Source: an uncultured bacterium
Lineage (GTDB): Bacteria; Oederibacteriota; PGYV01; CAWJRG01
Assembly (NCBI GenBank): GCA_963845185.1
Contig: CAWJRG010000010.1
Coordinates: forward strand, 608,001-672,000
Length of the DNA stretch: 64,000 bases
Direction: 5' to 3'
Numbering within the stretch: position 1 is the first letter of the stretch; the number at the start of each line of letters is the position of its first letter. A program made the translations under genes and the position numbers. The notes below the pieces were generated by a model that ran no database searches, was not told the origin of the DNA, and was given only the letters and a program-made list of their open reading frames with translations. Of this stretch, positions 31,515-64,000 are shown one piece after another.

Positions 31515-31515
31515 A

Positions 31516-32629: not shown

Positions 32630-32630
32630 T

Positions 32631-33320: not shown

Positions 33321-33374
33321 CTACCCGTCCTCCCAAATTCAAAATTTCTCCTTCCACCCTGATGGCGGAAAATA

Positions 33375-35372
33375 TCAAAACTGCACTTCCATGCCTGCCA
33401 TTATCATCCGTCCCTGTGTCTGATAATCATAAACTATGCGGTATTTCGTATTGTCGAATATGTTGCTCACATTGCAGAATATCCGTATATTATCGTTGAG
33501 TTTCTGTGCCGCATTTATATTTAAAAGATAATACGGCTTTAGAATTACTGAATTCCCTGAAGTAGAGTCAATTCTGTTATCGACATACTCGGCGTCAGCC
33601 GAAAGTTTTATCGCGTAAGGCAGAGAGACCGACGTATTTCCGGTAATTTTATTCCTCGGCATATACGGCAGGGGTTTGCCGCTTACTTCGTCGGTGCCGA
33701 GCATGCATGTATATCCCGCGGCAATGGACCAGAAATCATAAGGCCTATAACTCGCCTTTACCTCTGCGCCCGTGATGACAGCTTTGCCGATATTTACAGG
33801 TGTCGTTATATAAGTAGCGGGATTATATGAATAATTAATCAGGTCAGTCACGCTTCTGTAAAACCACACCAGCGATCCTGTAAACCTGTCGGTTTTATTA
33901 TCCACTCCAAGTTCGTAGGACATGGCTTGCTCGGGTTTTAAATCAGGGTTGGACTTTATGCCCCACGCTATATCGGAATAATAAAGCTCGTCAAGCGTGG
34001 GCGCTGAAAATGAATAATCCATGGTTCCGTGAACATTCGTATTTTCAGGCAGCGCGTACTTTGCCCCGAAGCTCCAGCTGTACATATTCCCATATACCGT
34101 GTTGATGTCATATCTCCCTCCGGCATCGGCCACGAGCGCTTTTATCGGCATCAGGGACACATTTAACATGATGCCTTCGTTCTGGATAATTTTCGTTCCT
34201 ATGCTGGTATCATTTATCGTTTTAATATTCTCATCAAAACCGCCTATAAGCGAAAGATAGCTTAATTGGTCATAAATTCCCATTATGCTTCCCTGCGTTT
34301 CTTTGGCGACTGTCCGCGTAGATGGATACATTGGAGAGGTGTTTGTCATGTCCCCGCTTCTCTTAAACACGCTCGCATCAATCTTTACGGCGTCAAGAGT
34401 TTCAATTTCATCGGCGCCGAATGAATAATTTTCATCATATTGATTGCCGGAAAATTCAGGGTTTGAAATGGAACCCGGGTATGCCGCATATCTATTAAGG
34501 TAATTGCCTGTCAGCGTTGTTTTGCTCCAGCCCTCTTCGAACGTAAGCTTCCCGTTAAAATATCTCTTCAGATAATCGCTGCCGGGAAAATTATCAATGT
34601 TTGGAAGATATCCCGCGCTTCTTTCCTGCAGCCCGCTTGCCGAAATCCCTGCTTTTCCAAGTTTGAAAGCGGTGCCGAGCGTTTCTCTCAGGGTATTATA
34701 GGACCCGTTTGAAACAGATGCATTTATAATGTTTTTCAATCCGGAATTTGTGATGATATTTACCACGCCTGCCGTAGCATCCGGCCCGTATATTGAAGAT
34801 AACCCTCCTTTTACAACTTCAATCCTGTCGATATTCAAAAGGTTTATCAAACCCATGTCGGTTGCGCCTGAAAGCATATCCGCCGTGGGCATATTGTCTA
34901 CCAGCACGAGCACCTGGTTTGATGCTGAGCCTCTCATCAGCAGCGATGCCGTGCCTTCTGCCCCGGAATATTTTTCTATCGTAATATCGGAAATCTCCTG
35001 AAGGATGTCTTCCGCTTTTGTCTTTCCCGAGTCCTGAATCTGTTCATTTGTTATTACATCTACGCTGCGCGGCACAAGGTTTAATATTTCCGGCACCTTA
35101 CGCGCTGTTACTACTACCTCGTTTAGCGTTGACTGCTGCGCTGTTTGAGTCGCCGCCTGCATAGAATTTGAATTATTTTCCTTTTTACCGGCCTCCGGCG
35201 GCGCAGTTTCTGCGACATTTTGTTGCGTTGTTTTATCCGGTTCGCTTTTTTGTATTATGGCAGAGCTTCCATTTGTTGCACTTTCAGGCAAATAGCCCGC
35301 ATCGTCAGCATGCGCCTGCAGCGCTCCTGCGGACAAACAGAGACAGATAAAAATTACTTTTTTAATCGGCAT
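33375..35372 (-). CDS. btuB: TonB-dependent cobalamin receptor (BtuB-like)
   Basis: EVVVTA TonB box, IDRIEVVKG...GVVNIIT plug, NPDLKPE, terminal Phe; lies in the riboswitch-led cob operon. Confidence 0.8.
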   Translation of the reverse strand: MPIKKVIFICLCLSAGALQAHADDAGYLPESATNGSSAIIQKSEPDKTTQQNVAETAPPEAGKKENNSNSMQAATQTAQQSTLNEVVVTARKVPEILNLVPRSVDVITNEQIQDSGKTKAEDILQEISDITIEKYSGAEGTASLLMRGSASNQVLVLVDNMPTADMLSGATDMGLINLLNIDRIEVVKGGLSSIYGPDATAGVVNIITNSGLKNIINASVSNGSYNTLRETLGTAFKLGKAGISASGLQERSAGYLPNIDNFPGSDYLKRYFNGKLTFEEGWSKTTLTGNYLNRYAAYPGSISNPEFSGNQYDENYSFGADEIETLDAVKIDASVFKRSGDMTNTSPMYPSTRTVAKETQGSIMGIYDQLSYLSLIGGFDENIKTINDTSIGTKIIQNEGIMLNVSLMPIKALVADAGGRYDINTVYGNMYSWSFGAKYALPENTNVHGTMDYSFSAPTLDELYYSDIAWGIKSNPDLKPEQAMSYELGVDNKTDRFTGSLVWFYRSVTDLINYSYNPATYITTPVNIGKAVITGAEVKASYRPYDFWSIAAGYTCMLGTDEVSGKPLPYMPRNKITGNTSVSLPYAIKLSADAEYVDNRIDSTSGNSVILKPYYLLNINAAQKLNDNIRIFCNVSNIFDNTKYRIVYDYQTQGRMIMAGMEVQF

Positions 35373-35386
35373 GTTCCCTCCTGTTG

Positions 35387-36259
35387 TTATTTTAACCGGA
35401 TTTTATCGAAAATATTCTCCAACATTTCGATAGCCTTTGATATTCTCGGCCCGGGCCTGAGCATTATATCCATATCTTTTTTCCCGATTACGAAGATATT
35501 TCCAAAAATCCCCGCTTTTGCCAATTTAAACCAGCTTCTTTCCATGTATCCGGATTCCGGTGTATATAAGAGCAGTATCACGTCTGGATTTCTTTTGATT
35601 ATTTCTTCGGGCGATACTTTGGGATAAAAAGAAATTGAGTCGGCCATCACGTTTATTCCGCCTGCTTTTGAGATGACATCGGTTATGAAAGAGTCCCTGC
35701 CGATGCTTATGGCGGGATTTCCCCATAACTCCAAATATACTTTTATATGTTTGTTTTGTTTTATATGTGAAATGGTTTTTTCGATGCTTGTAACTATTTT
35801 ACCGGCGGTTATTTCATTTCCAAGCAATTTTCCCATAATTTGTATGTCTTTCTCTATGGCTGAAATATCCCGCGAATAAAAAATAACGACTTTAATCTTT
35901 AATTCTTCAAGTTTTTCTATTATTTTATCCTGAAGGTCCTTTGTCGCGAGCACAACATCCGGTTTCAACGCCAATATTTTTTCAATATCCGGACTGACAA
36001 ACGAGCCTGCCTTTTCTTTTGTCAAGGCAGAAATCGGATAATTGCAGTTGATAGTGACAGCTTTAAGCTTCTTCCCGCCGCCAAGGGCATAGACCATCTC
36101 GGTTTGCGCCGGAGAAAGCGAAACAATACTTTTTACCGGTAATTTGATATCTGTTTTTCTTCCGGCATCATCAGTTATAATTTCAGCATGCGCTGAAATT
36201 ATACAGAAAAAGGAAATAAAGAAAACAAACCCGGTGCTTCTTAATAAATTAATTTTCAT
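35387..36259 (-). CDS. btuF: Cobalamin-binding periplasmic protein (BtuF-like)
   Basis: IVSLSPAQTEMVYALG, EKILALKPDVV, RPGPR. Confidence 0.82.
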   Translation of the reverse strand: MKINLLRSTGFVFFISFFCIISAHAEIITDDAGRKTDIKLPVKSIVSLSPAQTEMVYALGGGKKLKAVTINCNYPISALTKEKAGSFVSPDIEKILALKPDVVLATKDLQDKIIEKLEELKIKVVIFYSRDISAIEKDIQIMGKLLGNEITAGKIVTSIEKTISHIKQNKHIKVYLELWGNPAISIGRDSFITDVISKAGGINVMADSISFYPKVSPEEIIKRNPDVILLLYTPESGYMERSWFKLAKAGIFGNIFVIGKKDMDIMLRPGPRISKAIEMLENIFDKIRLK

Positions 36260-45203: not shown

Positions 45204-46477
45204 TGGAATGAACCCCTTCGTTTGGACACTCGGATTAGAACAAACCGGCCTGTTCCTGTAGTTTAGTTTCAAATTCTACCGGTGGAACGTAGCCTATTGC
45301 CGAATGCAATCTTTTTTGATTATACACCTCCTCTATAAAAAATGGAATCCTTTTCAAGACGTCATCGATAGTTTTATAATCCCACATATAAACTTCTTCA
45401 CATTTAATTGTTTTCATAAAACTCTCGGCTCCGGCGTTGTCGTACGGGTTGCCTTTGCGCGACATGCTGATAGTAAATTCGTGTTCCTTCAAGATGCCAA
45501 CGTAATCGTTGCAGGCATACTGCACGCCGCGGTCTGAATGATGGACTACGCCTGTTCCGGGCTTACGTCTCTCTATGGCCATTTTAAGCGCTCCTATAGC
45601 AAGGTCGGCATCAAGATACAGCGAAATATTGTAGCCTATGACCTTTCTTGAAAAAGCGTCCAGTATCACCGCTAAATACACGAAGCCAAGCAAAATTCTG
45701 ATGTATGTTATGTCTGAACGCCAGAGCTGGTTTAACGTTGTCAGGATCATGTCCTTCGCTATATTCGGGTAAATCCTGAACGGGTGATTGGAGTCTGTGG
45801 TTTTTACCCACTTGCGTTTGTACACCACCAAAAGCGAGCTTTCACGCATGATTCTTTGTACTCTTTTGTGGTTTACAATCACACCTTCACGGTGAAGCTG
45901 TTTTGTAACCCGCCTATATCCATATCCTGCAAACTCAAGAACTATCCGTTCAATTTTATCTCTTAAATCACAGTCCACCTTTAATTTTTTCTGGTTTTTT
46001 TCTTTGGGTTTGTAGTAATAACTGCTTCGGCTCAACCCAGTCATTTTGCACCATCTTTTAACTTCTCCTTGCCTTCTTCGCCCGGATATGGCCCGCCGAA
46101 TAAACTCTCTCTTTTCTTTGGTGCTTTTGCAAGGTGTTGACAGGCTTTTTTTAAAAAGTCATTGTCCATAGTCATCTGCCCAAGCTTGCGTTCAAGCTCC
46201 CGGACATGTTCTTTAAGCCCCTCGACTTCATCAGGTTCATTGCCGTATTTGCCACGGGCATAATTTTGCTTCCAATTCTGGAGTAATCCCCCTGATATTC
46301 CATATTTCCGGCTTATCTGCGCCGGCGTACTTACCTTGGATAGCAATTCTTCTACTACTTGTATCCTAAATTCTTTGTCAAAAACTCTCTTTGGTTTCAT
46401 AGATGGTCTCCTTTGCCTTATCAGGCCAGGTCTCCGTCTATTCTAACACATGTGTCCAGTCTCTTGGGTGCAGCCCA
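45204..46477 (-). mobile_element. IS3-family insertion sequence, 1274 bp, intact
   Basis: 26-bp imperfect TG...CA terminal inverted repeats (TGGGCTGCACCCAAGAGACTGGACAC / TGGAATGAACCCCTTCGTTTGGACAC); 3-bp target duplication GTA at 45201-45203 and 46478-46480. Confidence 0.95.
45235..46400 (-). CDS. IS3 transposase OrfA (46041-46400) / OrfB (45235-46044), joined by a -1 programmed frameshift
   Basis: OrfA HTH; OrfB DDE motifs WRSDITYI, HHSDRG and DNAGAESF; slippery A7 at 46146-46152 with the -1 frame open into OrfB; ATGA overlap. Confidence 0.93.
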
Positions 46478-47566
46478 GTATCTGAAAATGCTTTTAATAA
46501 TATTTCTCGTTGTGGTGAATTTTTAACAGCAGCGTGATAAATATCTTCGTATATAGTCTTTAGTTTACCTTCTGAAATTTCTTTGACTAAAATATCAATT
46601 GTTGATTTATTAATTGTTCCTTGCCCTCTTTCATATGCCAATAACATGGCTTCTCTTCCTAATAAATGAACGAAATAAGGAAAACCTTCACTTTTATTAA
46701 TAATTATTTTTTTAACATCTTCATCAAATAAAATTTTTTTAGAAATATGATGCTCGGCTTTCGTTATAATTTCCATTAATTCTGTTTCTGGCATTCTTTC
46801 AATTTCGATAGATTCAATTTGTCTACCAACAGAAGAATGATCTTCAATCAACTCAGTTATTGATGATGCGATACCAATTATTCCAAATTTTACAAATTCT
46901 GACGAACAAGCTTTTACTAACGATGAAAAACCTTTTTTATCTTTTAAAGTGTCAAATTCATCAATTAAAATAAAAATTCCTGTTTTATCTTGGTTATCCT
47001 TTTGAACCGTACCTAACATTTGTCTAAATTGTTGTGTTAAATCATCCGACATATATGTTTTAAATGTTTTTTCCTCTTTTCCCGAACCATTTATTTTTGC
47101 TCCAAAAAAATTAGCGCCTCCATCTATTCCTATTGTTTTTTTAAAACTTTCTAATTTTATATCACCAGATTTTGTTAAATTAAATAAAGGAGGATTCTTA
47201 TCATCGCCAAATAAAATTCTTTTCAATAAATCAAAAACGTTTTTAATTGAACTATCTATTTTAATGTAATATGTAATAAACTTGAATCCATTATTAGGGA
47301 TAAAACGATCTAAACTTAATGTTCTTGGCAATTTATTATTTCCAGAAGCAATTAGGGATAGTTGGTGTCCTATTGAAGATTTTCCAACACCTCTTAAGCC
47401 ATATATAGCAAGAAAAGATCCGGGATTGCTTAGACAAATTATACCATTACGTATTTGTTCCTTTCTTCCTACAAATAAATCAGGATTTTGTATTTCTTGA
47501 GTAGGCGAAAAAGCTTCGTTAATTATTTTAATATCCATAGTTCTCCTTTTTAAAAATTTTTAATAT

Positions 47567-49969
47567 TTAATCATTTATTAATTTAAAAATATAAGAATAA
47601 ATATTATTCAACGGTCCTGAAATTTTATTATTATCAAGAAAAGAACTTACAATATTCATATAATTTACGTTAATTTTATATAGAATATTTTCATCTTTAG
47701 TTGATATAGTTTTTTGATCTAACGTAATTATTTGCAATTTAATAAATTCTTCAAAAATTTTTTCAATTTTAGGAATATTTTTTATACAACCAATAATTAT
47801 ATTTATTTTTTTTACTGAATGATAAACCTTTCCCGTTCTAAATTTTCCAAGTATTTGATTAATCCATTTTTTAACGTCATCTTCATAAACAGGTACTTCA
47901 TTCTCAGCTAATATTTTCATTAAACATGCTTTAGAATCTTCATCAATTTTTTCTACTTTTGAAAAATTTTTTTTAAATGATAATCTTTTAAGTCCTTTAC
48001 AGTTTTTAAATTCAATTCTTCCAGTAAATTCTCCATTTTCGAATAATGTATTTTCATTGAAATCACATTTATCAAATACTACGTCTTTAAAATTACAATT
48101 TATAAAAGTAACATTGAATAAATTAATTTTGGTTATTGTTCCTTTGATAGACATATTTTCAAATTTTCCATCAAACACAAATAATATATCTTCTATAATA
48201 TCCTCCGATTTTCTTTCAGTGCTTTTAAAATTTGTTGATAGATATTGGATTAAATTAAAGAGTGCGGGTGAATAATAATTTCGCCAATCTTTATGTCCTC
48301 TTAATTTATCTGATAAAATTTTTATTCTATTTATTAGAGCTTTATATTCTAAATTATTAATTTTATTTAATCTAAAAATTTCATTTAAATTCCCAAAATA
48401 TTCAGTTAACCCCGAATGTAATTTTTCAGAGAATTTTTTTAAATACTCATATTCAGATATTTCTTCTTGAAACAAAATATCGTAAAAAACCAAACACTCG
48501 AAAAATGGTCCTGCAAAATTCCACCTAAATTCATAATTATTTTGTTTATTTTTTTTAATAAGAGGATGGCTAATAAATGAACGGAATCTATTTTTGTCTT
48601 TTGGATTTTCTTTATCAATATTTGAATAAATCCATATAAAATCTTCGGAAAATGAATTTCCAATATATTCTCTATCTTTAACAATATTTTTAAATATTTC
48701 CATTTGTGTAGTAGAATCTAACCCTATTCCTTGTTTTAATGAATTACGATCACAAACTTTTTTTAATACCGCATACATAATTCCTAAGTTAGAAACACTT
48801 AATTCTGCATTATTAGTATCTTCTGCTGCTAAACAAATCATTTCTAGCATATAAGGATTAATTTCAATCTTACTTTTATTATCATAAGCATCTATAACGC
48901 TTCTAGCAAGTTTTTCGGCACGCTTACGTTGTATTTCATTTGTCAAATCAGGTGAAGATTGAATAAAATCAATCATTTGTTTTTCATTAAAATCTTTTAA
49001 AGCAAATATATCTATATTTTTCTCTATTAATTGCATAACTTCACTACTTTTAACATCTTTTATTGCTTCATCCCAAAAAACATCTCTTGTTGTAAGTAAT
49101 ATTCGACCAGTATCAATTGTCTTATTAAGACCGCTGACAAGAGAAGTAATTTTCTCTAAAACATCTTGTGCATTAAAAGAATGATAAAACATTGTACATA
49201 ACTCATCAAATCCGTCGAAAATTATTAAAAAACTACCATTATTCAAAAAAGTTTCTAAAAATTCTGTAGATTGTCTTTTAAATTTTAATTGAACCAATGA
49301 TTCAGATAGAATATCTTCAATCGCAATGGGGGACTTATCTAATAAATTTTTCCATTGGGAAGAATCAATAAAGATTGGAAGAATTTGTCTATTTTCGAAA
49401 TTTATTGCATAATTAAAATTAATTTTTTCACATAATCTAGTTTTTCCACCACCCCCAGCTCCCAATATTACTGCCACATTTCTTTTACCATTGATCAACC
49501 ATTCATTAATAAAATAATTTAATGCATTATCTTTTGATTCTTCATGCGAATCATGGCGAAAATAAATAAGAGCTTGGGATGTATATTTAGGCTCGTTTAA
49601 GTTTTCAAACAAAGATTTATCAATATTCCTTTTTATTATATCAAACGAAAATTGTCTAACAGTCCTAATTGTTGTAGCACTAAGACTTTTTTTAATACTT
49701 TCCAATTTCATTTGAATTTTGCTTGAATTTTTACCACTAATTAATGGTGAAGAATTTTGGATTAAAATATTTAATTTTCTTTCATGAGAATTTTTTTCTA
49801 AGGCATCATCAAGTGACGTATTATTAGCATCAGAATCAAAAAAAATAAATTTTATTTTTTTAATTTCAGCATAATCATAATATTCACATTCATATAATTC
49901 CCATTGCTTTCCTTGATTAATAATAGCAACATTTTCATATGCTTGTCTTAATTCGTTTATTATTGACAT
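47567..49969 (-). CDS. NACHT/STAND NTPase with C-terminal pentapeptide-like repeats
   Basis: Walker A GAGGGGKT, Walker B LIIFDGFDE, ILLTTR; FNVTFINCNFKDVVFDKCDF repeats; very AT-rich. Confidence 0.85.
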   Translation of the reverse strand: MSIINELRQAYENVAIINQGKQWELYECEYYDYAEIKKIKFIFFDSDANNTSLDDALEKNSHERKLNILIQNSSPLISGKNSSKIQMKLESIKKSLSATTIRTVRQFSFDIIKRNIDKSLFENLNEPKYTSQALIYFRHDSHEESKDNALNYFINEWLINGKRNVAVILGAGGGGKTRLCEKINFNYAINFENRQILPIFIDSSQWKNLLDKSPIAIEDILSESLVQLKFKRQSTEFLETFLNNGSFLIIFDGFDELCTMFYHSFNAQDVLEKITSLVSGLNKTIDTGRILLTTRDVFWDEAIKDVKSSEVMQLIEKNIDIFALKDFNEKQMIDFIQSSPDLTNEIQRKRAEKLARSVIDAYDNKSKIEINPYMLEMICLAAEDTNNAELSVSNLGIMYAVLKKVCDRNSLKQGIGLDSTTQMEIFKNIVKDREYIGNSFSEDFIWIYSNIDKENPKDKNRFRSFISHPLIKKNKQNNYEFRWNFAGPFFECLVFYDILFQEEISEYEYLKKFSEKLHSGLTEYFGNLNEIFRLNKINNLEYKALINRIKILSDKLRGHKDWRNYYSPALFNLIQYLSTNFKSTERKSEDIIEDILFVFDGKFENMSIKGTITKINLFNVTFINCNFKDVVFDKCDFNENTLFENGEFTGRIEFKNCKGLKRLSFKKNFSKVEKIDEDSKACLMKILAENEVPVYEDDVKKWINQILGKFRTGKVYHSVKKINIIIGCIKNIPKIEKIFEEFIKLQIITLDQKTISTKDENILYKINVNYMNIVSSFLDNNKISGPLNNIYSYIFKLIND

Positions 49970-55248: not shown

Positions 55249-58200
55249 TTATTTAAGTATCAATATTGTTGAAAAGCCTGCGCTGGATATGCCCTGGCCT
55301 TTCATTTCTACCTTGAGCCTGTAAGCGCCGGGTGCAAGCGTCTGGCCGCCTGAAGCTTTACCGCTCCATTGCACCGTGTGGTCCCCTGTGGAAACGTAAT
55401 AGACTCCTGTAAGCTCCTGCTGCCATATGAGCCTGCCGGACACTGTGTATACTTTCAAATATACTGTAGTGTCCGGGGATGGGACATAGACTCTCTGACC
55501 TAAGGCTGCGGCAGCCGCTCCTGTGGATGTAGTGTTCACAGTGTACTTTATATTCACACCTGTTGCCGCTGTCGCAGGGTTCGGGTAAGTCATTACATTG
55601 GAAACCACGGCTGTACTTTGAGTAGATGAAGGCTCCTGTCCCCAGACCAGCACTCCCGAAGAATATGCAGTTACCCTGGTCCATGCCTGCCAGCTCTGCG
55701 TATTTGAGTAGCTCCAGTCGTTTGACTGCACCATGGCGGACCAGTCTGATTTGTTGAACCTTGCCTGGATCTCTATCGTCTGTCCGGGCTGCAGCACCAG
55801 GTTTCCCGTAAATTTGTAACTTATGTAATCGGTCTGTCCTCCCAGAGTTGTCGGTACTACCGTGGTTTGCACATCCTGGGTAACCGAGGTTCCGGCCGGC
55901 AGTAATCCCGCCCAATCAACCCAGGCCTGTATTGCCTGGCCTGTGCAGTCGCAGTTAAACCAGTACCTCACCTCTATATTATTAAGGTTTATCGCAGAGG
56001 TACCACTGTTTACTATCTGGAACTGCGGGTGCGGGCTGTTTGAATTGTTGTTGGTGTCAGCGCTTCTTAGTTCAATGGTCAGATTCACAGTAGTTGGCAC
56101 TGTAGGTGATGGCGTTATCGGCGTATTCGTCGGAACAGGCGTTGTTGGTGTCGCTGACGGCGTTATTGGTGTATTCGTAGGTACAGGTGTCGTAGGTGTT
56201 GCTGACGGCGTTATTGGCGTGTTCGTTGGAACCGGTGTCGTCGGTGTCGCTGACGGCGTTATTGGCGTGCTTGTTGGAACCGGTGTCGTCGGTGTCGCTG
56301 ACGGCGTTATTGGCGTGTTTGTTGGAACCGGCGTCGTCGGCGTCGCTGACGGCGTTATTGGCGTGTTCGTCGGAACCGGCGTCGTTGGCGTCGCTGACGG
56401 TGTCACCGGTGTATTTGTCTTTGTGAATGTATTGGTACTTGTGAAAGTATTCGTCGCCGTATAAGTGTTCGTGAAAGTATTTGTCGGCGGCACCGGCGTA
56501 TTTGTCTTTGTAAAAGTATTGGTGCTTGTTAATGTATTCGTCGCCGTGTAAGTCAGTGTATTGGTACTCGTTAACGTATTCGTCGGCGTATAAGTAAACG
56601 TATTGGTGCTCGTTAACGTATTGGTTGGCGTCGCCGGCTGGGGTATTATCTGGATAGCGCATACCTGTGCATTGTCCGCGCTCGCGGGCCCGAACTGGAT
56701 CGTGATCTGCCCGTTGCTTGGCGATATATTGTTAAACACTTTATCGTCAGCTTTGTATTCCGCACCCGAATCAGCGAATATGTCGAAGTTGCTCAGGACC
56801 TGGGTGCCGTTTATCGACACGTTGAACACACGCGACCCGGCTGCGGTCCAGATATGTCTCGGCGAATTTCAGCGTTACCTGGTAGCTGCCCGCTGGCACG
56901 TTAAATGTGTAAGTAAACGGGTTGCCGTACCTTTCACTCTGGTAAAGTGTCGGGTCCGTGGTATTTGAAATACTGTTTGTTAAAGTTTTTGCCGTGCCGC
57001 TGCTGTAATTCTCATCCGCGGCCCACACATTGCCGCTGCCGTCCGTATACGACGAACCTCCGGCATCCACCCTCCATATTGACTGAATAACGGGCGTCGG
57101 TGTCGGCGAAGGAGTAACAGGTGTATTCGTAGGAGCGGGTGTAGTTGGAGTCGAAGTCGGCCCCACCGGTGTATTTGTCTTTGTGAAAGTATTGGTCGGT
57201 ATAGGCGTCGTAGGCTGCGGTGTCACTCCGCCTGATGTGCCTACAAATGACATCACGCTCTGCGCCGGCAGCGAATAGGTAAAGCTGTTCCCGGAAACTG
57301 ACACGGCAGACTGCGCAACGAGGTTATTGTTAGCGTCCGTTTGCCAGGGCGTGACCGACGTCGCGGAAAGCCCGTTAAGGCTGAACTGCTGGCTTGTGGC
57401 CGACGAATTCTGGTTTATGACGACTATAACGAACTTGCCTGAGTTCGGGTCCGTATATGCCGAGCAGCTCAGGCCCGATGTCGGCGCCTCTGTAGCGCCT
57501 ATGCGGACGAAGCCGGGCTTGACGAACTTGCTGTAGTTGCCAATGGTATAAAGCCTCTTTGTCGGGTTGCCGCTCGAGTCGCACAGCCCCTCATCGTCGG
57601 AGCCCGTTGGGACCAGCCACCAGTAACAAAATGCGTTGAAATTGTTGTCCACGATACATTTGTGAAGCAGAGCGGCGTAGTAGATACCGCTGTCTATATT
57701 ATTATCGCTGGTTTTCTCCGAGATCTCCGTCTCCCAGCTCTCGACCGTATGGCCGGCAGTAGTGGAATAACTGGACGGTATCGCGGTAGGGCCGCCGCCG
57801 TACAGGTGCATGCCGATGACTTTCACGTATTTCGCCGCGTTCGAGTCCGCCATAGTGGTGTTGGAACCGGTCAGGTTGTCCGCAAAGGATTCCGGCATCA
57901 TGATGATGTTGTTAAAACCGGCGGCTGCGAGGTCCGGGCCCAGGTAGCTGCCGATGAAGGTGTCAAATGCCGATGGCGACCAGAGGCAGGCATCATAGCT
58001 GGGGTCGTAGTCCGGTTCGTTCTGGACCGAGATCGCGTAAAGTGTAAAACCGTAGGTGTTTTTGCAGGCTGTAACAAAGCTTGTCAGGTAGCTGGCATAG
58101 TCGCCATAGTGCGAGGTGTTAAGCTGGTTGGAGTTGGATCCGGGATTGAAGTTGTCGTTGCCGGTGTTGTTGCCGCTTGTGCTGTTGTTGTTCTTCCATT

Positions 58201-58564: not shown

Positions 58565-58613
58565 TTGCACACGTGTGCAAATAAAATATATCAAATAATT
58601 ATAAATTTGTCAA
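58565..58613 (-). promoter_or_regulatory. GH30 promoter and LacI-type operator
   Basis: TTGACA (58608-58613), 17 nt, TATATT (58585-58590); perfect 16-bp palindrome TTGCACACGTGTGCAA at 58565-58580. Confidence 0.8.
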
Positions 58614-58796
58614 GCATTTTCACGTTTTATTTTCCAATAATGAACGTTCATAATATGATTGCGAAAAACAAATACCTTGCAGTTTAAAACGACGTTTTAA
58701 AAAATGATTAGATGGATTACTGCACACTATAAAATTTAAAAATAGCTCGCAATGACAGATTCTGTCGTTTATCCCTCTGACTGAATTCTCATTTTT

Positions 58797-59810
58797 TCAT
58801 GTGCTGTTCCTTATAATAAGCTCGGGGTAGAATATCTCGTCGTGCATGTTTTTCAAATCATTCTCCTGTATTGCCCTGACAGCAATCTCGACGGCTTTCC
58901 TGCCCATCTCAGCTGCCGGCTGCCTGACAGCTGTCATGCCTGCAGCGAGAGACAGGCGCATGTCGTCCTGGCTTACGATCGCCAGGTCATCGGGTATCTT
59001 CAGCCCTTTTTTCCTTGCCTCATCGAGCACCCTCAGCATGTAGCCCTCTCCTGCCGCGAAATATATAGCGTCCACTTTTTTGTCCAGGAAAAAATTCAGC
59101 GCTGTCCTGTGCACCTCCGGGTAGTCTTCGGGGAATTCGAATATGTTATGTTCGCCGGCGTTAAGGCCGTGGCTTGCCATGATCCTTTTGAAACCGGTCA
59201 GCCTTTCCTTGTAGCTCTGCACATAGCGCGTGTTGCCTATCATCATTCCTATTCTTTTCCTGCCCCTCTCCACAAGGTGGTTCACTGCCAGTACAGCAGC
59301 TTTCTCATTGTCGTAGTGCACCCTGTGACCCCACAAGCCCCTGCCTTCTATAAATACTACGTGTATTCCAGCCTGCCTGTACCTGTCCAGTATATTCCCC
59401 CTGCCTGTCATATTGGCAGTTATTATGATGACTGCCTCGGCCTTTCTCTCGTCGAGTATCTTTTCAAATATATATGTGTCCCTGCCTTGGGTGCCTACAA
59501 CCGTGAATTTTTGGGTGGTATAATAATCCATCTCAAACCCGGTATTTATCATTGCAGGCTCTATCCCGCGCATGACCTCGGCCGGGTAAATGGAAAAATA
59601 CGAGAATGTCACTATGGCTATTGCGTTTGATTTTGCCCTTGCCAGGCCTTTTGCGGCAGTATTCGGGATATAATTCATTTCCATTGCAGTCTGCCTGATT
59701 TTTTCGGCAGTTGCCTTGTTTATGCGCGGGTCATTATTCAGGGCGCGCGACACAGTTGAATGGTTTATGCCAAGCTTTTTTGCTATGTCCTTGATTGTGG
59801 TTAGTTTCAT
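58797..59810 (-). CDS. LacI-family transcriptional regulator
   Basis: TIKDIAKKLGINHSTVSRALN HTH, YIPNTAAKGL, IPDDLAIVSQDD. Confidence 0.96.
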   Translation of the reverse strand: MKLTTIKDIAKKLGINHSTVSRALNNDPRINKATAEKIRQTAMEMNYIPNTAAKGLARAKSNAIAIVTFSYFSIYPAEVMRGIEPAMINTGFEMDYYTTQKFTVVGTQGRDTYIFEKILDERKAEAVIIITANMTGRGNILDRYRQAGIHVVFIEGRGLWGHRVHYDNEKAAVLAVNHLVERGRKRIGMMIGNTRYVQSYKERLTGFKRIMASHGLNAGEHNIFEFPEDYPEVHRTALNFFLDKKVDAIYFAAGEGYMLRVLDEARKKGLKIPDDLAIVSQDDMRLSLAAGMTAVRQPAAEMGRKAVEIAVRAIQENDLKNMHDEIFYPELIIRNST

Positions 59811-59845: not shown

Positions 59846-59900
59846 GATTAGTATCATGCATGAAAATCTATATGTGCCCATCCAACCGTTATTGCTTTAT

Positions 59901-60179
59901 TCACCCGCAATCGCAGGAGACTTTTTTGCCCTTGCCCCTGAACTTTGAGGCAAGCACAGCTGACGCGCAGCCCGGGCCAGCGTCGACCTTTATCGCGCCG
60001 AACGCGCAGTTTGTCATGCATGCCCCACATTCAATGCATTTGTCTTTGGCGGTCACAATTGCCTTTTTCCCTTTCATCTGGAATATCCTGTGAGGGCACA
60101 CAATGACACACATCTGGCATCCTGTGCATTTTTTCTCGTTGTATTCAAGGGTGTTCAGGCCAAGGTAAGTCAGTTCCAT
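59901..60179 (-). CDS. hgcB: Mercury methylation ferredoxin HgcB
   Basis: Two CxxCxxCxxxC motifs, CIECGAC signature, GPGCA and C-terminal SCDCG; overlaps the hgcA stop. Confidence 0.93.
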   Translation of the reverse strand: MELTYLGLNTLEYNEKKCTGCQMCVIVCPHRIFQMKGKKAIVTAKDKCIECGACMTNCAFGAIKVDAGPGCASAVLASKFRGKGKKVSCDCG

Positions 60180-61348
60180 TTTATTGCACCTTTTATTACG
60201 AAGTCTGCTATCTGCAGGCCTATACCGATTATTGCCGCAATTATCATCACAGGCACTGATACTGCGATTTCTTTGCGCACGCCTGTAAGCGATGTGAAAG
60301 TAGATGTGCCTGTGTAATTCATGAAAATAAAAGAAGTAAATGCGGTAGATAGCATCACAATGGATGCCTGCGTGAGATGCGTCATGCCAAGCGCGAGCAG
60401 CACAAACGCCAGCGAACCTATGAGTCCGGTAACTGCTCCTTTAACCGAAAACATTCTGCCCGGCAATACAGGCAGCAGCGCAGCAGGCAGTACAGTCGCG
60501 CATAGCACTGCGACAAACAGGGCCTCTATAAAATACGCTGCGTTGGAAAAGCCCGTGGCCAGGTTAAAACCATTTTTTGTGAAACTTGCGGCCAGTACTG
60601 CAACAACAGAAGTAGTAAGTATTATCTTCACAGCAGATACAAACTCTATACCTGTTATTTCCATCCTTTTCCGCAACCCGAAACCAACTGTCCTCTGTTT
60701 TTCATCTGCCTTCATCCCGTTTTTCAAAAACTCTTTTATGTCCCGCGCCTCAACAGGCCCGAATATGACTTTGAACCTTGCGCCTTTCCTTACAAGGTGC
60801 GCTGCTATCCCCGGCGCGCCGAGCTGCGGCACTATCACGTCCCTGTGTGCGACAACCCTGTCCAGCTTCACAAGCTTTATCCTTTTAATAAGTTCCTCTG
60901 TCCCAAAAGTGCCCTTGCCTGCAGCGCACCAGACATTCACTCCCTTTGAGTCCAGCACAAGTATCCACGCGTCAATGCCTGTGAGTTCTTTTCTCAGCGA
61001 GTCAAAAGACATCTTGTAATTTGCAGATACCAGCACAGGCGAGTTCCTGTCTGGCTTTCCCACCGCGTATAACCCCGGCCGCACGCCATGGTTCATCCTG
61101 TTTATCCCGAACCGAGCAAGCAGGTTTCCTATTATATCGGTTATTCCTAATTTTGTCGGCACAACAGGCGCGCTGCCTCCTGCTGTTTTTAATATATCCA
61201 GCACGCGGAATTTTTTAAATTTTGTTATTTCCTTTATCGGCCCGCCGCAGCAGCATTCCTCTTCTTCTTTATCTTCTTCAGCCGCACATCCGCATGAAGC
61301 CTGTTCTTTTTCCTCTTCGCAGCAGCAGCTTTGCTTTTGTTTTTTCAC
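60170..61348 (-). CDS. hgcA: Mercury methylation corrinoid protein HgcA
   Basis: Cap-helix motif NVWCAAGKG, SANYKMSFD, PQLGAPG, GPVEARD; C-terminal TM domain with NYTGTSTFTS. Confidence 0.95.
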   Translation of the reverse strand: MKKQKQSCCCEEEKEQASCGCAAEEDKEEEECCCGGPIKEITKFKKFRVLDILKTAGGSAPVVPTKLGITDIIGNLLARFGINRMNHGVRPGLYAVGKPDRNSPVLVSANYKMSFDSLRKELTGIDAWILVLDSKGVNVWCAAGKGTFGTEELIKRIKLVKLDRVVAHRDVIVPQLGAPGIAAHLVRKGARFKVIFGPVEARDIKEFLKNGMKADEKQRTVGFGLRKRMEITGIEFVSAVKIILTTSVVAVLAASFTKNGFNLATGFSNAAYFIEALFVAVLCATVLPAALLPVLPGRMFSVKGAVTGLIGSLAFVLLALGMTHLTQASIVMLSTAFTSFIFMNYTGTSTFTSLTGVRKEIAVSVPVMIIAAIIGIGLQIADFVIKGAIKWN

Positions 61349-62265
61349 CTGCCTGCTCCTTTTCCCGCCTGTTTGCCGAATTCTATCGTGCTTTTTATGA
61401 AATCACCGGGCGTGCCGAAATCAAAGCGCCTGGCGTCTTTTATTTCCAGCGCGCAGTATCCCTGCCTCTGCCTTAAGAGCTCCTGCGCATAGGTTAGCTG
61501 TATTTCGTTGTTCTGCCTGATATTGGCTGCTATCATTTCCTCAAGCACATCATATATACCCGGCGTAAGCACATGCATCCCGAACCAGCCGAGGAATTCG
61601 CCCGGTCTCAGCCCGCTGACTTTCAGTTTCTTCCCGGCTGTTTCTGCGCCTGGTTTTTCTATGATAAGCGACACGTCTATTAAACACGGGTTGTTTTTCC
61701 TCCGCACGCCCGCAATCACCCCGTAGCCTTTTAAATCTTTTGTCCGGATGCGGTTGACCGCAGAGACAGCCCTGCCGCACTCTTCATACGCCCTCATCAG
61801 CCGGCTATGGCAGGACCTGGCGCCTGACCTGAACAAATGGTCGCCGAGGCAAAGCAGTACAGGCTCATTGCCCGCGAACTTCCTGCTCTGGAATACGGCG
61901 TGCCCGTATCCTTCCTGTTTTTTCTGCACTGCGAATGATATCCTGCTTAATGCCGCGCGCATTTTTTTTGCTTCACCGTATAATGCCTTATGCTTTTTCA
62001 GCCTTCCGATATAATCGGCGTCCGGGCCGTTAAAATAATCCTCGATAAGCTTTTCTTCACCGGGCCTCACAATGACGCAGATTTCTTTTATCCCTGCGCC
62101 GATCAGGTCCATCACCTGGTAATGTATCATTGCCCTTGCTATGCCGTCGGGCCCGACCACAGGGAAAAGCTCTTTTTTGCAAGCGTGGACCGCAGGAAAC
62201 AGGCGCGTGCCCAGGCCTGCAACAGGTATGACTGCTTTTTTTATCATCATATTTCCCTTTTCCAT
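61345..62265 (-). CDS. Sugar-1-phosphate nucleotidyltransferase (GalU-like)
   Basis: KAVIPVAGLGTRLFPA..ACKKELFP, QEGYGHAV, LGDH, IIEKP, EIQLT, RFDFG. Confidence 0.88.
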   Translation of the reverse strand: MEKGNMMIKKAVIPVAGLGTRLFPAVHACKKELFPVVGPDGIARAMIHYQVMDLIGAGIKEICVIVRPGEEKLIEDYFNGPDADYIGRLKKHKALYGEAKKMRAALSRISFAVQKKQEGYGHAVFQSRKFAGNEPVLLCLGDHLFRSGARSCHSRLMRAYEECGRAVSAVNRIRTKDLKGYGVIAGVRRKNNPCLIDVSLIIEKPGAETAGKKLKVSGLRPGEFLGWFGMHVLTPGIYDVLEEMIAANIRQNNEIQLTYAQELLRQRQGYCALEIKDARRFDFGTPGDFIKSTIEFGKQAGKGAGR

Positions 62266-63692
62266 CCTGCTTTACCTTTCCTGTATGCCAGCGCGCCGAA
62301 CTCTTCCGCGCCCGGCGAGGTTCCGGAAAAAACATCCGGTTTTAACCCGGTTTCTTTTTCGTATTCATCTGCTACGGCGCGTATTTCTTTTGCGATGGTT
62401 TTCCTGCTGCCGAATACCGCCACAGTACCGCCGGAGCCTCCGCCTGTTATTTTTGCTCCGTACAATCCGCCCGGCCTTACCCTTTTTTTTACGCAATCCA
62501 CCAGGTAGTCCGTCTCAGGCACCGACAGCCGGCAGTTTTTACCGTAGCTTTCATGGCACGCGAACATGTACGTACCGGCTTTTATAAAATCCTTTTCGTC
62601 CTTTGCTGTTTTCAGCGCCTGTATAAATCCCAGCACTCTCTGGTTTTCGTGTACCGGGTGCGCCGTCGGCCCGGCTACCCTGTAAGCCCTGTCATGCCTT
62701 ATTTCGGTTGCCGGGTCCTCATGCGTCCTGAATTTTTTCAAAAACCCGCTGCCGCTTATCGTTTCCGGCAGCAGGCCCCTGTATTTTTTTTCGAATTCCG
62801 CCGCGCCAAGCTCGGTCAGGTACTGTATTTCTTTTTCGCCTTTTGACGCGCGCGCAGCGTTGATTATGCGCTTGCCCATAAAAGCGCCTGTGCGCACGTC
62901 GCCGTATGCCCTGCCTGCGACTGAATGCCTGACCATTGAATTAATTCCTGCAAAAGCAGCGCCTCGGGGTATGCTTATCTCGCCTGCTATGCTGCCCGGC
63001 CTGCATAAAATATGGAGTAGTTTCCCGTGCCTGCCCGCGGCAACTGTTATCTGGTCCATTGCGCCGCACGGCGCGCCCACTACCATGTTTTCAGCGAGCT
63101 GCCCGAGCTCGGCCATGCGCAATGCCGGCATGTCCAGCTTCAGGTAATTCTGCAGGGCGTAAAGCGTGGATATTTCCACGGCAGCCGAGCTGCTTATGCC
63201 CGAGTTCATGGGCACCCCGCTTAAAAGGAAAATATTGAGGCCGTTATAAAGGCGCATGCTGTGTTCTTTTAGGAGGACAAAAATAGAACCTACTATATAA
63301 GCGGACCATGCCGCAAGAGGGTTTGACCGGCAGATGGACCTGATTTGCCCGTATGCCGCATATTCCCCGTTTGAGTTGAATAAATCCAGCGGTATTCCTG
63401 TTTCCGCAGCCAGGTTCTGCGCGCCCATCTGCAGTGTCCTTATCCTGATTGTCCGGTCTTTCCGCGGCTGTATTGCCATGGCTATGCCGCAGCCGAGCGT
63501 GCCTTCGCATACGTTGCTGCCCGAATAGTCGGCTATGCCGCCCATGATGTCAAGCCTAGCAGGCACCCTTGTGACAGTGATTCCGCTTTGGTTGAAAAAT
63601 CCGTCCAGCCCTGGTTGGCTGTTTTGTTTCTCATTCAAAAGCGATTCAAACCGCGCAATTTCCGGCAGCAGTTTATTGTCCAAATGGCTCAT
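62247..63692 (-). CDS. GHMP-family sugar kinase, L-arabinokinase/galactokinase-like
   Basis: PARLDIMGGIADYSGS, PMNSGISSSAA, ENMVVGAPCGAMDQ, GAKITGGGSGGTV; ATG 63692 overlaps the upstream stop (ATGA). Confidence 0.85.
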   Translation of the reverse strand: MSHLDNKLLPEIARFESLLNEKQNSQPGLDGFFNQSGITVTRVPARLDIMGGIADYSGSNVCEGTLGCGIAMAIQPRKDRTIRIRTLQMGAQNLAAETGIPLDLFNSNGEYAAYGQIRSICRSNPLAAWSAYIVGSIFVLLKEHSMRLYNGLNIFLLSGVPMNSGISSSAAVEISTLYALQNYLKLDMPALRMAELGQLAENMVVGAPCGAMDQITVAAGRHGKLLHILCRPGSIAGEISIPRGAAFAGINSMVRHSVAGRAYGDVRTGAFMGKRIINAARASKGEKEIQYLTELGAAEFEKKYRGLLPETISGSGFLKKFRTHEDPATEIRHDRAYRVAGPTAHPVHENQRVLGFIQALKTAKDEKDFIKAGTYMFACHESYGKNCRLSVPETDYLVDCVKKRVRPGGLYGAKITGGGSGGTVAVFGSRKTIAKEIRAVADEYEKETGLKPDVFSGTSPGAEEFGALAYRKGKAGWKREI

Positions 63693-64000
63693 TTTATAAA
63701 CACTCCCTGTAAAATAAGCAGTCCAGCTCCGGTAAAAATAAACGGGCAAAGCTTGTACGGCAGGAAATTTATCTGAAAGCCCGTGAAAAGCGACAGTATA
63801 GACATGGCGATGAGCATTAAAAATATAAGCACATACACTGCCTTTGCCACGTCAATGCCTTTGTCCTCGACAATTGCCGTAGTAATAGCCAATATGCCCA
63901 AAAATATCAGCGCCATGCCCTCGGTCACCCATTCCATTGTTATTACTCTGGCGTTGTCAAGGGTGATGTTTCCGAATCCTTTTACAACCGATACTGTTGG
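63689..64000 (-). CDS. Hypothetical membrane protein, 5' end outside the window
   Basis: Frame is open to the window edge (...VVKGFGNITLDNARVITMEWVTEG...), with hydrophobic helices. Confidence 0.65.
   Translation of the reverse strand, partial: PTVSVVKGFGNITLDNARVITMEWVTEGMALIFLGILAITTAIVEDKGIDVAKAVYVLIFLMLIAMSILSLFTGFQINFLPYKLCPFIFTGAGLLILQGVFIK

Follow-up and report, generated by a model that had tools for sequence, protein, structure and literature searches.

An hgcAB mercury-methylation gene pair that probably forms the distal end of an inherited arsenic-type cluster, with the probable insertion of a sugar-activation module in one lineage

The window, i.e. the whole stretch of 64,000 nucleotides that was analysed, ends within a minus-strand gene string with the order arsC-membrane gene-kinase-transferase-hgcA-hgcB, in which one 10-nt gap is followed by four overlapping junctions. 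It lies on a 908 kb contig of an 11-contig genome that is 99.4% complete and rich in enzymes acting on xylan, arabinoxylan and cellulose. The window itself carries GH5, GH30, GH43, GH62, GH95 and CBM3/4/11 proteins, along with CobT, CobS and B12-uptake-like genes. Several neighbouring genes seem to be frameshifted or split. The features of the locus are as follows.

58565..58580, no strand: perfect palindrome TTGCACACGTGTGCAA, located after a promoter-like site before the GH30 gene; candidate LacI operator
58797..59810, minus strand: LacI-family regulator gene, located downstream of hgcB across a 90-nt gap; a promoter-like site of its own lies at 59845-59817
59901..60179, minus strand: hgcB, encoding a ferredoxin of 92 aa with two [4Fe-4S] clusters and a ...SCDCG tail
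60170..61348, minus strand: hgcA, 392 aa, GTG start, with a corrinoid domain and a C-terminal membrane domain
60914..60937, minus strand: cap-helix motif NVWCAAGK, HgcA residues 138-145, including Cys141
61166..61348, minus strand: Cys/Glu-rich N-terminal extension of HgcA (SCCC, CGC, CCCGG), conserved among relatives
61345..61363, minus strand: hgcA ribosome-binding region (GGAG, 7-nt spacer, GTG), inside the last transferase codons
61345..62250, minus strand: GalU-like sugar-1-phosphate nucleotidyltransferase gene, 301 aa (ATG at 62250) or 306 aa (ATG at 62265); PF00483
62247..63692, minus strand: predicted GHMP anomeric sugar kinase gene, galactokinase/arabinokinase-like, 481 aa; PF00288 and PF08544
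63689..64000, minus strand: 3' part of a gene for a small membrane protein (129 aa, about four hydrophobic segments), which extends to about 64078, past the window

An overlap at every junction had been claimed in the original prediction, and four of four were confirmed from the sequence. On the minus strand, the membrane gene and the kinase gene share ATGA at 63692-63689, the kinase and transferase genes share ATGA at 62250-62247 (a 19-nt overlap if the alternative ATG at 62265 is used), the transferase gene and hgcA have a GTGA stop/start overlap at 61348-61345, and hgcA and hgcB overlap by 10 nt at 60179-60170. The physical coupling of the sugar genes and hgcAB in this one genome is real.

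Profile searches placed both proteins above the NCBI equivalog cut-offs. HgcA scored 388.8 bits against NF040863 (cut-off 275), with residues 62-382 matched, and HgcB passed NF040864 narrowly (102 bits, cut-off 99). Scores of HgcA against the HgcAB-like fusion model (204 bits, cut-off 285) and the CdhE-type model PRK04165 (72 bits, cut-off 306) were below threshold. The cap-helix motif of HgcA is N(V/I)WCA(A/G)GK and contains the cobalt-ligating Cys; the NVWCAAGK sequence found here conforms to it. Hydrophobic segments consistent with a C-terminal multi-helix membrane domain lie within residues 231-389, as read from a simple Kyte-Doolittle hydropathy scan and not from a topology predictor. HgcB has two CX2CX2CX3C cluster motifs, CTGCQMCVIVC and CIECGACMTNC, together with GPGC, and thus shows both C(M/I)ECGAC and the conserved Cys some 20 residues before the C-terminus that characterise the family. 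Most members finish with a CC pair, whereas the SCDCG tail here has two Cys that are not adjacent; in a comparison of 98 HgcB tails, a terminal CC was seen in 65, a CC close to the end in 13, this CxC type in nine and other types in 11. Relatives L003, L004, L005, G009, G013 and G021 share the Cys-rich N-terminus (SCCC...CGC...CCCGG) that is encoded when hgcA begins at this GTG, and such conservation supports the start codon. An N-terminal CC/CU extension of HgcA has been described by Haft & Gwadz (10.1101/2022.07.06.499078). As far as the available text of that preprint allows comparison, the present protein likewise has a Cys-packed segment N-terminal to the formerly annotated start, but unlike the form with U it is all-cysteine, with two CCC runs and no need for an in-frame TGA.

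In a quick maximum likelihood tree of 102 rows, HgcA formed a clade (SH-aLRT 99) with seven same-order sequences, the nearest from relative G009, and the four sub-threshold paralogues fell on long branches outside. Clustering with CdhD/CdhE paralogues, which had been envisaged as the outcome that would speak against the assignment, was not seen: the protein groups with same-order HgcA, far from the sub-threshold paralogues. The hgcAB identity put forward in the original prediction is upheld by the equivalog scores, NVWCAAGK, the membrane domain, CIECGAC and the tree. As judged from sequence, hgcA-hgcB is a genuine mercury-methylation gene pair, for which methylation activity is predicted. The intact pair, its key motifs and its well-supported clade likewise agree with the proposal that this polysaccharide degrader is a genetic methylator. 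RpoB is 79% and 77% identical to that of the two nearest genomes, and HgcA 71% and 65%, a comparison which supports vertical inheritance of hgcAB within its order.

The two genes preceding hgcA are predicted to act in sugar activation. The kinase scored 153.8 bits against the galactokinase GalK model TIGR00131 (cut-off 226.65) and was likewise under the cut-offs of other galactokinase models; it is predicted to be an anomeric sugar kinase and is not classed as GalK. Its best homologues are 63% identical and carry the JGI names galactokinase or L-arabinokinase. It also matches the PDB entry 9ulx, 'AbGHMP', at 1.9e-94; a literature search for this solved structure found no paper. The transferase did not reach the cut-off of the GalU (UTP-glucose-1-phosphate uridylyltransferase) model TIGR01099 (153.4 bits, cut-off 326.8), and other NTP-transferase genes in the genome are 37% and 32% identical to it. 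By established pathway logic, a sugar kinase paired with a nucleotidyltransferase feeds activated sugars into glycan synthesis and does not serve catabolism. We considered a cobamide-related role of the pair (PduX- or CobY-like) and rejected it, as sugar-1-kinase and GalU-type models match far better. In plants, a salvage route combines a sugar-1-kinase with a UDP-sugar pyrophosphorylase, e.g. the arabinokinase ARA1 with USP (PMC12281597). Measured against the accessible part of that account, the present pair is similar in that a GHMP-family anomeric kinase precedes a nucleotidyltransferase and JGI calls some kinase homologues L-arabinokinase, and different in that it is bacterial, has a separate 481-aa kinase and has a transferase of GalU type and not USP type.

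Beyond the window, a gap of 10 nt separates the small membrane gene from an LMW-PTP/ArsC-type gene (119 bits, under its own equivalog cut-off of 174), which lies 3 kb upstream of hgcAB and on the same strand. Further upstream, still on this strand, are two rhodanese domains, an ABC/FtsX pair, a CoA-disulfide-reductase-like gene, and then acr3 (415 bits, cut-off 283) and arsR, the last two lying 8-10 kb upstream of hgcAB. With arsR, acr3 and an arsC-type gene all co-oriented, hgcAB is embedded in an ars cluster. The earlier view that hgcAB has neither an ArsR nor a metal-resistance gene next to it must be revised in light of these genes; the apparent absence was a window-edge artefact, because the window ends inside the membrane gene.

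The same context recurs in relatives. A same-strand arsR lies upstream in ten of the 12 same-order hgcA loci, and in the other two no more than 830 nt of contig remains before the locus. Across 20 hgcA loci of relatives, arsR was present in 12, acr3 in 12 and arsC in 11, without exception on the strand of hgcA; in a wider set of 80 hgcA loci the counts were 28, 16 and 11, respectively. The conserved hgcAB context in this order is arsR-acr3-(arsC)-hgcAB, i.e. arsenic and not sugar. In relatives G003 and G013, arsC closely abuts hgcA, and a spacer of 212-215 nt precedes hgcA in L003 and L005; these acr3-hgcA spacers have no counterpart in the present genome. In front of arsR are a strong promoter-like site (11 of 12) and a unique 11-N6-11 palindrome. 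This ArsR-operator-like palindrome was found at arsR alone within the locus, 8-10 kb upstream, and ArsR control of hgcAB is therefore doubtful here.

No homologue of the kinase or transferase was found beside hgcA in the 80 wider loci or the 20 loci of relatives, and neither hgcA, hgcB nor ars genes were found beside kinase homologues in 80 metagenome loci. Conserved linkage of hgcAB with sugar genes, for which relatives had been proposed as the comparison, is thus absent. The 80 kinase loci came from an alignment-based scan, a single-protein query having given no relative. In 65 of them the transferase homologue comes immediately after the kinase, with heterogeneous flanks, and one kinase-pair locus adjoins genes for an arabinofuranosidase and a rhamnogalacturonan lyase. 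No kinase orthologue was found in 98 other genomes of the phylum, three of which have homologues at 37-40% identity. Homologues at E<=1e-20 were absent from 60 relatives, and the three nearest genomes have partial kinase paralogues only (31-36% identity). The G+C content is 0.534 for the kinase gene, 0.52 for the transferase gene and 0.529 for the pair vs 0.423 for the genome, which puts the pair at the 99.4th percentile of 6947 genome windows. Compared with 43 of 53 complete homologues, the transferase has 6-7 additional C-terminal residues, whose codons span the hgcA ribosome-binding region. No convincing repeats, direct or inverted, were found on either side of the inserted genes, and no mobile-element genes. 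Taken from sequence comparison, the kinase-transferase pair appears as a portable two-gene module whose insertion is a one-off event peculiar to this genome. The small membrane protein has no Pfam or NCBIfam family match, with weak DUF4345-like leads in the Atlas. The exact insert limits are uncertain, because its gene is host-like in G+C (0.421) and its one homologue (42% identity) lies directly after hgcB in the Bacillota MAG L008.

Regulatory signals were sought across the locus. A LacI-family regulator gene follows hgcB here, and relative G009, which is without the kinase pair, has a LacI homologue (35% identity) after its own hgcAB block. The palindrome TTGCACACGTGTGCAA is present a single time in the 20-kb locus. 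Neither of the two LacI-operator-like palindromes before the GH30 gene has a further copy upstream of the hgcAB gene string. Inside the transferase gene, where an independent promoter had been envisaged, and inside the kinase gene, no minus-strand promoter-like site (at least 9 of 12) was found with a sigma-70 model whose fit to this candidate phylum is uncertain. Two nearby promoter-like sites fall after the hgcA start codon, in the stretch that encodes the HgcA N-terminus. The 80-122 nt before arsC held no convincing promoter in a sigma-70 scan that may not suit this candidate phylum. An Rfam scan of the 20-kb locus gave no family match at E<=0.1, and therefore no cobalamin or other riboswitch. 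A search of this genome for FlaA (PF04620) gave no match, but the controls gave none either, so that this negative carries no weight. Among sequencing runs, none from RNA was listed as containing 59850-64000. Three peat-metagenome DNA runs from one study yielded contigs of 151-416 nt, about 95-97% alike, that cover the kinase and transferase genes only and are uninformative on hgcAB and the junctions; none crosses a junction by at least 31 letters, and one 44-nt piece falls on the hgcA cap-helix region. We infer that the sugar genes and hgcAB are co-transcribed. Their co-expression is likely, but looks accidental.

We consider it probable that hgcAB is the distal end of an arsenic-type cluster inherited within the order, that the sugar module was inserted in this lineage alone, and that the sugar link is accidental. 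An arsR-acr3-(arsC)-hgcAB cluster would represent the ancestral state. A two-gene nucleotide-sugar salvage module (GHMP kinase and GalU-like transferase) would then have landed immediately before the hgcA ribosome-binding site, and the GGDEF, CoA-disulfide-reductase-like, ABC/FtsX and rhodanese genes now separate arsR-acr3 from arsC. Transcription of hgcAB may proceed by read-through from a promoter before arsC or further upstream, and hgcA is probably translated from its own conserved Shine-Dalgarno site, now within the last transferase codons. With such read-through and a site of its own, hgcAB would be coupled in expression to the sugar genes by position and not by conserved regulatory logic.

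Selection might instead keep HgcAB made alongside plant-sugar salvage, so that methylation or the native reaction follows the supply of cell-wall sugars. The four overlapping junctions, whose seamless packing could reflect selection for co-expression, speak for such co-regulation, as do the absence of promoter-like sites (at least 9 of 12) within the kinase and transferase genes, the abundance of xylan, arabinoxylan and cellulose enzymes in the genome, the kinase pair that elsewhere adjoins arabinofuranosidase and rhamnogalacturonan lyase genes, and the LacI regulator after hgcB. We nevertheless regard it as unlikely, given that the linkage occurs in this genome only (none of 100 hgcA loci and none of 80 kinase loci), that the GH30 promoter is the sole place with the LacI-type palindromes, that G009 has LacI after its hgc block yet lacks the kinase pair, and that a kinase with a nucleotidyltransferase would serve glycan synthesis and not catabolism. 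The earlier suggestion that hgcAB expression may follow sugar metabolism and so hint at the native role is not supported, as linkage is not conserved and the LacI-type palindromes are not upstream of the gene string. It is quite unlikely that the insertion put hgcAB under plant-sugar salvage expression and cut off ArsR control, with methylmercury rising with polysaccharide breakdown in a peat-type fibre degrader; if true, this would be a natural rewiring experiment parting the arsenic signal from hgcAB expression.

That hgcAB is expressed independently, from a promoter of its own, retained or newly gained, in the 3' portion of the transferase gene or at another site, and that the overlapping codons are without regulatory meaning, we judge to be very unlikely. 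No minus-strand promoter-like site lies inside the transferase or kinase gene, the two nearby sites come only after the hgcA start, and the abutting arsC of G003 and G013 fits operon expression; against this, hgcA keeps a good GGAG site with a 7-nt spacer, the 212-215 nt before hgcA in L003 and L005 could hold a promoter, and promoter prediction is unreliable in this phylum. Mis-assembly of the metagenome bin, joining the kinase pair to hgcAB, is hardly credible, even with a G+C jump of about 10 points and with frameshifted or split-looking neighbour genes that suggest an error-prone assembly. The contig spans 908 kb of a genome that is 99.4% complete in 11 contigs, synteny with relatives is seen on either side (ars upstream, hgcAB-LacI downstream), and both inserted genes are complete and share start and stop codons with their neighbours on either side, which a chimeric join would not give.

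Association of hgcAB with ars genes has already been published (McDaniel 2020, PMC7438021; Gionfriddo preprint, 10.1101/2022.10.17.512643; Zhang 2023, PMC10349881), and our comparisons refer to the accessible portions of these sources. In Pseudodesulfovibrio mercurii ND132, hgcAB occurs with a co-transcribed ArsR-like regulator (10.1101/2022.10.17.512643). The present locus resembles it in having an hgcA-hgcB pair with the same motifs, accompanied on its own strand by arsenic genes and a regulator of the ArsR family. Unlike in ND132, arsR is not adjacent but 8-10 kb upstream; eleven genes separate it from hgcA, two of which are the foreign sugar-activation module; HgcA has an all-Cys N-terminal extension; and HgcB ends in CDCG, not CC. 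Methylator MAGs have ars-hgcAB neighbourhoods with acr3, arsC, arsM and arsR, and hgcAB flanks are otherwise heterogeneous (PMC7438021). The co-orientation of arsR, acr3 and arsC with hgcAB seen here, also a pattern of ten of 12 same-order relatives, matches those MAGs, but here the cluster has been enlarged and is interrupted by other genes. Among the hgcAB flanks in the accessible portion of PMC7438021, neither a sugar kinase nor a nucleotidyltransferase was seen. What this locus adds is a further case of the known ars-hgcAB arrangement, carrying an insertion specific to its lineage.

The list of genetic mercury methylators gains a fibre degrader from a small candidate phylum. The arsenic link is reinforced, since in this order hgcAB nearly always sits at the end of an arsR-acr3 cluster, and this order-level pattern agrees with the published arsenic link to the native role of HgcAB. 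The sugar-kinase linkage, which could have offered a fresh clue, is a single-lineage insertion and offers no basis for inferring hgcAB function; at most, the insertion may serve as a natural test of hgcAB moved away from its ArsR promoter.

We find that the link between hgcAB and sugar genes in this genome is best read as a foreign two-gene module, a kinase followed by a transferase, inserted into an ars-hgcAB cluster. The original prediction had stated that no ArsR or metal-resistance gene was adjacent. That statement proved to be an edge artefact, because the window stops within the membrane gene 5' of the kinase and the ars genes lie past that edge; in L002, a 20-kb stretch around the locus that extends beyond it (window position = L002 position + 58000), an ArsC-type gene, acr3 and arsR lie upstream on the same strand. 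The rest of that observation (hgcAB, their coordinates and the gene overlaps) was real; the junctions were re-read from the sequence and found correct.

Features of the hgcAB locus, from the far upstream end to beyond hgcB (window positions unless L002 is named)
Upstream of arsR, minus strand: flavodoxin
Upstream of acr3, minus strand: arsR
Upstream of the GGDEF gene, minus strand: acr3 (415 bits, cut-off 283)
L002 11875-12408, minus strand: GGDEF protein, upstream of the CoA-disulfide-reductase-like gene
Upstream of the 281-aa protein gene, minus strand: CoA-disulfide-reductase-like protein
Upstream of the permease gene, minus strand: 281-aa protein with C-terminus CSGGSCCHH
Next upstream of the ABC ATPase and paired with it, minus strand: FtsX-type permease
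L002:7594-8280 (past the window's edge, equivalent to 65594-66280), minus strand: ABC ATPase, frameshifted
Upstream of the ArsC-type gene, minus strand: double-rhodanese protein
10 nt 5' of the membrane gene, minus strand: LMW-PTP/ArsC-type protein (TIGR02691, 119 bits, under the cut-off of 174; CX5R and a second Cys pair visible)
5' of the kinase gene, minus strand: membrane protein, 129 aa, no family match
60170-61348, minus strand: hgcA, 392 aa, GTG start (NF040863, 388.8 bits, cut-off 275)
59901-60179, minus strand: hgcB, 92 aa (NCBI HgcB equivalog NF040864, 102 bits, cut-off 99)
90 nt 3' of hgcB: LacI-family regulator that has a separate promoter-like site
After the LacI-family regulator: GH30/malectin/CBM3 gene

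Several smaller features were noted in these flanks. The ABC ATPase frame ends at 171 aa and its C-terminal part (LDPDNAIQ...GKIGN) continues in another frame over the next 170 nt, reflecting either decay or an assembly indel. Together with the FtsX-type permease and the secreted CSGGSCCHH-ended protein, which has no family, it forms a triad (L002:7765-10350) that recurs beside hgcAB and arsR in four loci (L028, L037, L059 and L195), from three Planctomycetota MAGs and one genome of the window's phylum; the three may together form an exporter that handles thiols or metals and is tied to ars/hgc loci. Between the CoA-disulfide-reductase-like and 281-aa protein genes is a small ORF (L002:10249-10500) whose product resembles a lipoprotein and carries CGPNCTC, and a separate small membrane ORF precedes the GGDEF gene in a 350-nt "gap" after acr3. 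On the other side, the GH30/malectin and CBM3/FlgD_ig ORFs share 59 nt, each in a different frame (window 56771-56829), and it looks as though a frameshift had divided a single secreted multidomain glycosidase.

The identity of HgcA was confirmed against its paralogues, since a quick maximum-likelihood tree with 102 rows grouped it with seven same-order HgcA sequences in one clade (SH-aLRT 99) and left four sub-threshold paralogues outside on long branches. Its closest row by path was that of the relative G009. The sole Pfam match of HgcA is a CdhD-like corrinoid domain, the cap helix NVWCAAGK occupies residues 138-145, and hydrophobic segments take up residues 231-389. Assignment as a fused HgcAB-like protein (204 bits, under the cut-off of 285) or as an acetyl-CoA synthase corrinoid protein (PRK04165, 72 bits, under the cut-off of 306) was rejected. 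HgcB carries two CX2CX2CX3C motifs, one with CIECGAC, a GPGC cysteine and the tail SCDCG; among 98 HgcB tails, CC stood at the end in 65 and near the end in 13, nine had CxC, including that of the window, and 11 had other forms. The organism is a credible genetic methylator.

On the minus strand, like the rest of the string, the membrane gene and kinase share an ATGA (63692-63689). Between kinase and transferase the overlap depends on the transferase start: the ATG at 62250 gives another shared ATGA, and that at 62265 an overlap of 19 nt. The transferase and hgcA share a GTGA (61348-61345), with GGAG 7 nt 5' of the GTG, and hgcA and hgcB overlap by 10 nt. This GTG is the earliest possible hgcA start in the open frame and the only one to cover a Cys-rich N-terminus (SCCC...CGC...CCCGG), which is kept in other hgcA loci (L003, L004 and L005) and in relatives (G009, G013 and G021) and matches the CC/CU extension of HgcA reported by Haft & Gwadz (10.1101/2022.07.06.499078). 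Five further hgcA loci (L043, L060, L067, L077 and L078) have an open frame of just 24-51 codons where the tblastn match begins, and therefore a stop within the matched N-terminal part, which fits the selenocysteine (CU) forms described there.

Description of the organism as a polysaccharide degrader is reasonable, as the window encodes glycoside hydrolases of families GH5 (with a type-IX-secretion-type sorting tail), GH30, GH43, GH62 and GH95, together with CBM3/4/11 proteins and TonB-dependent receptors. CobS and CobT (lower-ligand attachment), a BtuF-like periplasmic binding protein and a TonB-dependent receptor are encoded at 29720-36259, 24-30 kb from hgcAB, and the organism is probably able to finish or salvage the cobamide needed by HgcA. 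An IS3-type integrase (rve) gene lies by a very AT-rich stretch (45235-49969; G+C 0.25-0.30) encoding an 800-aa NACHT-domain protein, likely a foreign island ~10 kb from the hgc locus. The phylum has just 99 genomes in the data searched, which suggests a small candidate phylum; two same-order MAGs carry the submitter label Spirochaetia.

Co-location of hgcAB with arsR, acr3, arsC and arsM is already reported by McDaniel 2020 (PMC7438021). The Gionfriddo preprint (10.1101/2022.10.17.512643) describes an ArsR-like regulator in P. mercurii ND132 that is co-transcribed with hgcAB and controls them, and ArsR-type genes adjoining hgcAB in Spirochaetes MAGs; Zhang 2023 (PMC10349881) examined 31 confirmed methylators and found that 14 have arsR upstream of hgcA at a distance of three ORFs or less. 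The supplementary tables of these papers may list this or similar loci. A literature search turned up no publication that ties hgcA to a galactokinase or uridylyltransferase.

With one genome scanned for each species, at least 576 hgcA-encoding stretches were found, of which the best 80 were examined as loci (tblastn, E<=1e-5, ~8 kb on each side where the contig allowed). HgcA scored above the family cut-off in 23 of 60 relatives, 11 of these among the 23 same-order genomes, and 20 relatives' loci, 12 of them same-order, were examined at E<=1e-4. The two sets comprise 97 distinct loci because three of the 20 are the same records as L003-L005. The linkage to sugar genes that had been proposed was not conserved: kinase and transferase were each found in 0/80 and 0/20 loci. 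The small membrane protein occurred in 1/80 (L008, directly 3' of hgcB) and 0/20. Among the best 80, arsR was present in 28, acr3 in 16 and arsC in 11; among the 20, the counts were 12, 12 and 11, every time in the same orientation as hgcA. Ten of the 12 same-order loci have arsR upstream, and the remaining two, which start 266 and 828 nt ahead of hgcA, offer no upstream DNA to examine. The order in G009 is arsR, acr3, a 125-aa Cys protein, hgcA, hgcB, arsC, nitroreductase, lacI and a lipoprotein with Pro/Thr linkers, so that the downstream LacI neighbourhood is common to G009 and the window. In comparison with the two genomes that contain L003 and L004, RpoB is 79% and 77% identical and HgcA 71% and 65%, and RpoB is ~50% identical to that of two genomes of other phyla, a pattern that fits vertical inheritance of hgcAB in the order. 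The acr3-hgcA spacers of L003 (7789-8000) and L005 (7783-7997), 212-215 nt long and running up to the hgcA ribosome-binding site, are a long imperfect palindrome and 50-nt tandem repeats with GC-rich hairpins, respectively, and neither resembles anything in the window's genome.

At 481 aa, the kinase is a GHMP protein (PF00288, PF08544) of a large family of ~482 aa, matched by 7836 of 8000 scored candidates. It fell under the cut-off of every galactokinase model, and the transferase is GalU-like, but far under the galU cut-off. The best kinase homologues are 63% identical (JGI names: galactokinase or L-arabinokinase); its best solved-structure match is 9ulx, "AbGHMP", on which a literature search found no publication. 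In established pathways, an anomeric kinase with a nucleotidyltransferase after it yields an activated sugar for glycan synthesis, which is salvage and not catabolism. The kinase was not found in 60 relatives at E<=1e-20; homologues of 37-40% identity occur in three of 98 other genomes of the phylum, all of one family, and only partial paralogues (31-36%) occur in the three genomes whose HgcA is closest. Metagenomes scanned with an alignment built from 25 kinases yielded 80 kinase loci. A transferase homologue lies directly 3' of the kinase in 65 of them (54-70% identical, save one cut at a contig end), and many of the other 15 stop too soon to tell whether it follows. The genes hgcA, hgcB, arsC, acr3, arsR and the membrane gene were each found in 0/80 kinase loci.

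Pfam searches of 30 ORFs, hand-picked from 112 in 10 longer kinase loci, gave mutually unrelated flanks (UxuA-like dehydratase, aldehyde dehydrogenase, tRNA synthetase/IF3, integrase, QueC, arabinofuranosidase with rhamnogalacturonan lyase, formate transporter and others), and the pair is a self-contained, portable module because its flanks among the scanned loci are unrelated. Its G+C is 0.529 vs 0.423 for the genome (99.4th percentile of 6947 equal-length windows); that of hgcAB is 0.487 (91.8th percentile) and that of the membrane gene 0.421. The window's transferase is 6-7 residues longer at its C-terminus than 43 of 53 complete homologues, and the added codons pass through the hgcA Shine-Dalgarno site to the common GTGA. 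Such an extension would be expected from an insertion just 5' of the hgcA ribosome-binding site. The sugar link is limited to the window's genome among 97 distinct hgcA loci, 80 kinase loci and 99 phylum genomes.

From gene packing alone, we infer that arsC through hgcB would be co-transcribed and translationally coupled; a search for RNA runs covering the region found none. Promoter-like sites were sought by a sigma-70 scan scored out of 12, the value of which is uncertain for a candidate phylum. The region's best site (TTGACA-17-TATATT, 11/12) fronts arsR and overlaps with a perfect 11-N6-11 palindrome that has no other copy in 20 kb. At >=9/12, two sites lie within the hgcA codons for the N-terminus and one in the membrane gene, and no minus-strand site lies within the transferase or kinase genes. 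Terminator-like matches in the gene string are weak and inside coding sequence, and no Rfam family matched in 20 kb. In front of the GH30 gene, the perfect 16-bp palindrome TTGCACACGTGTGCAA (58565-58580) lies just 3' of a TTGACA-17-TATATT promoter-like site, and AATGAACGTTCATA (58639-58652) has one mismatch to the palindrome AATGAACGTTCATT. Both are candidate operators, and likely ones, for the LacI regulator next to them; neither was found again upstream of the hgcAB string. That the insertion rewired hgcAB expression to follow sugar salvage is conceivable but quite improbable, and unsupported. Read as an insertion into an ars-hgcAB cluster, the locus adds to an already known arrangement, and what differs is the foreign two-gene module inserted in the window's genome.
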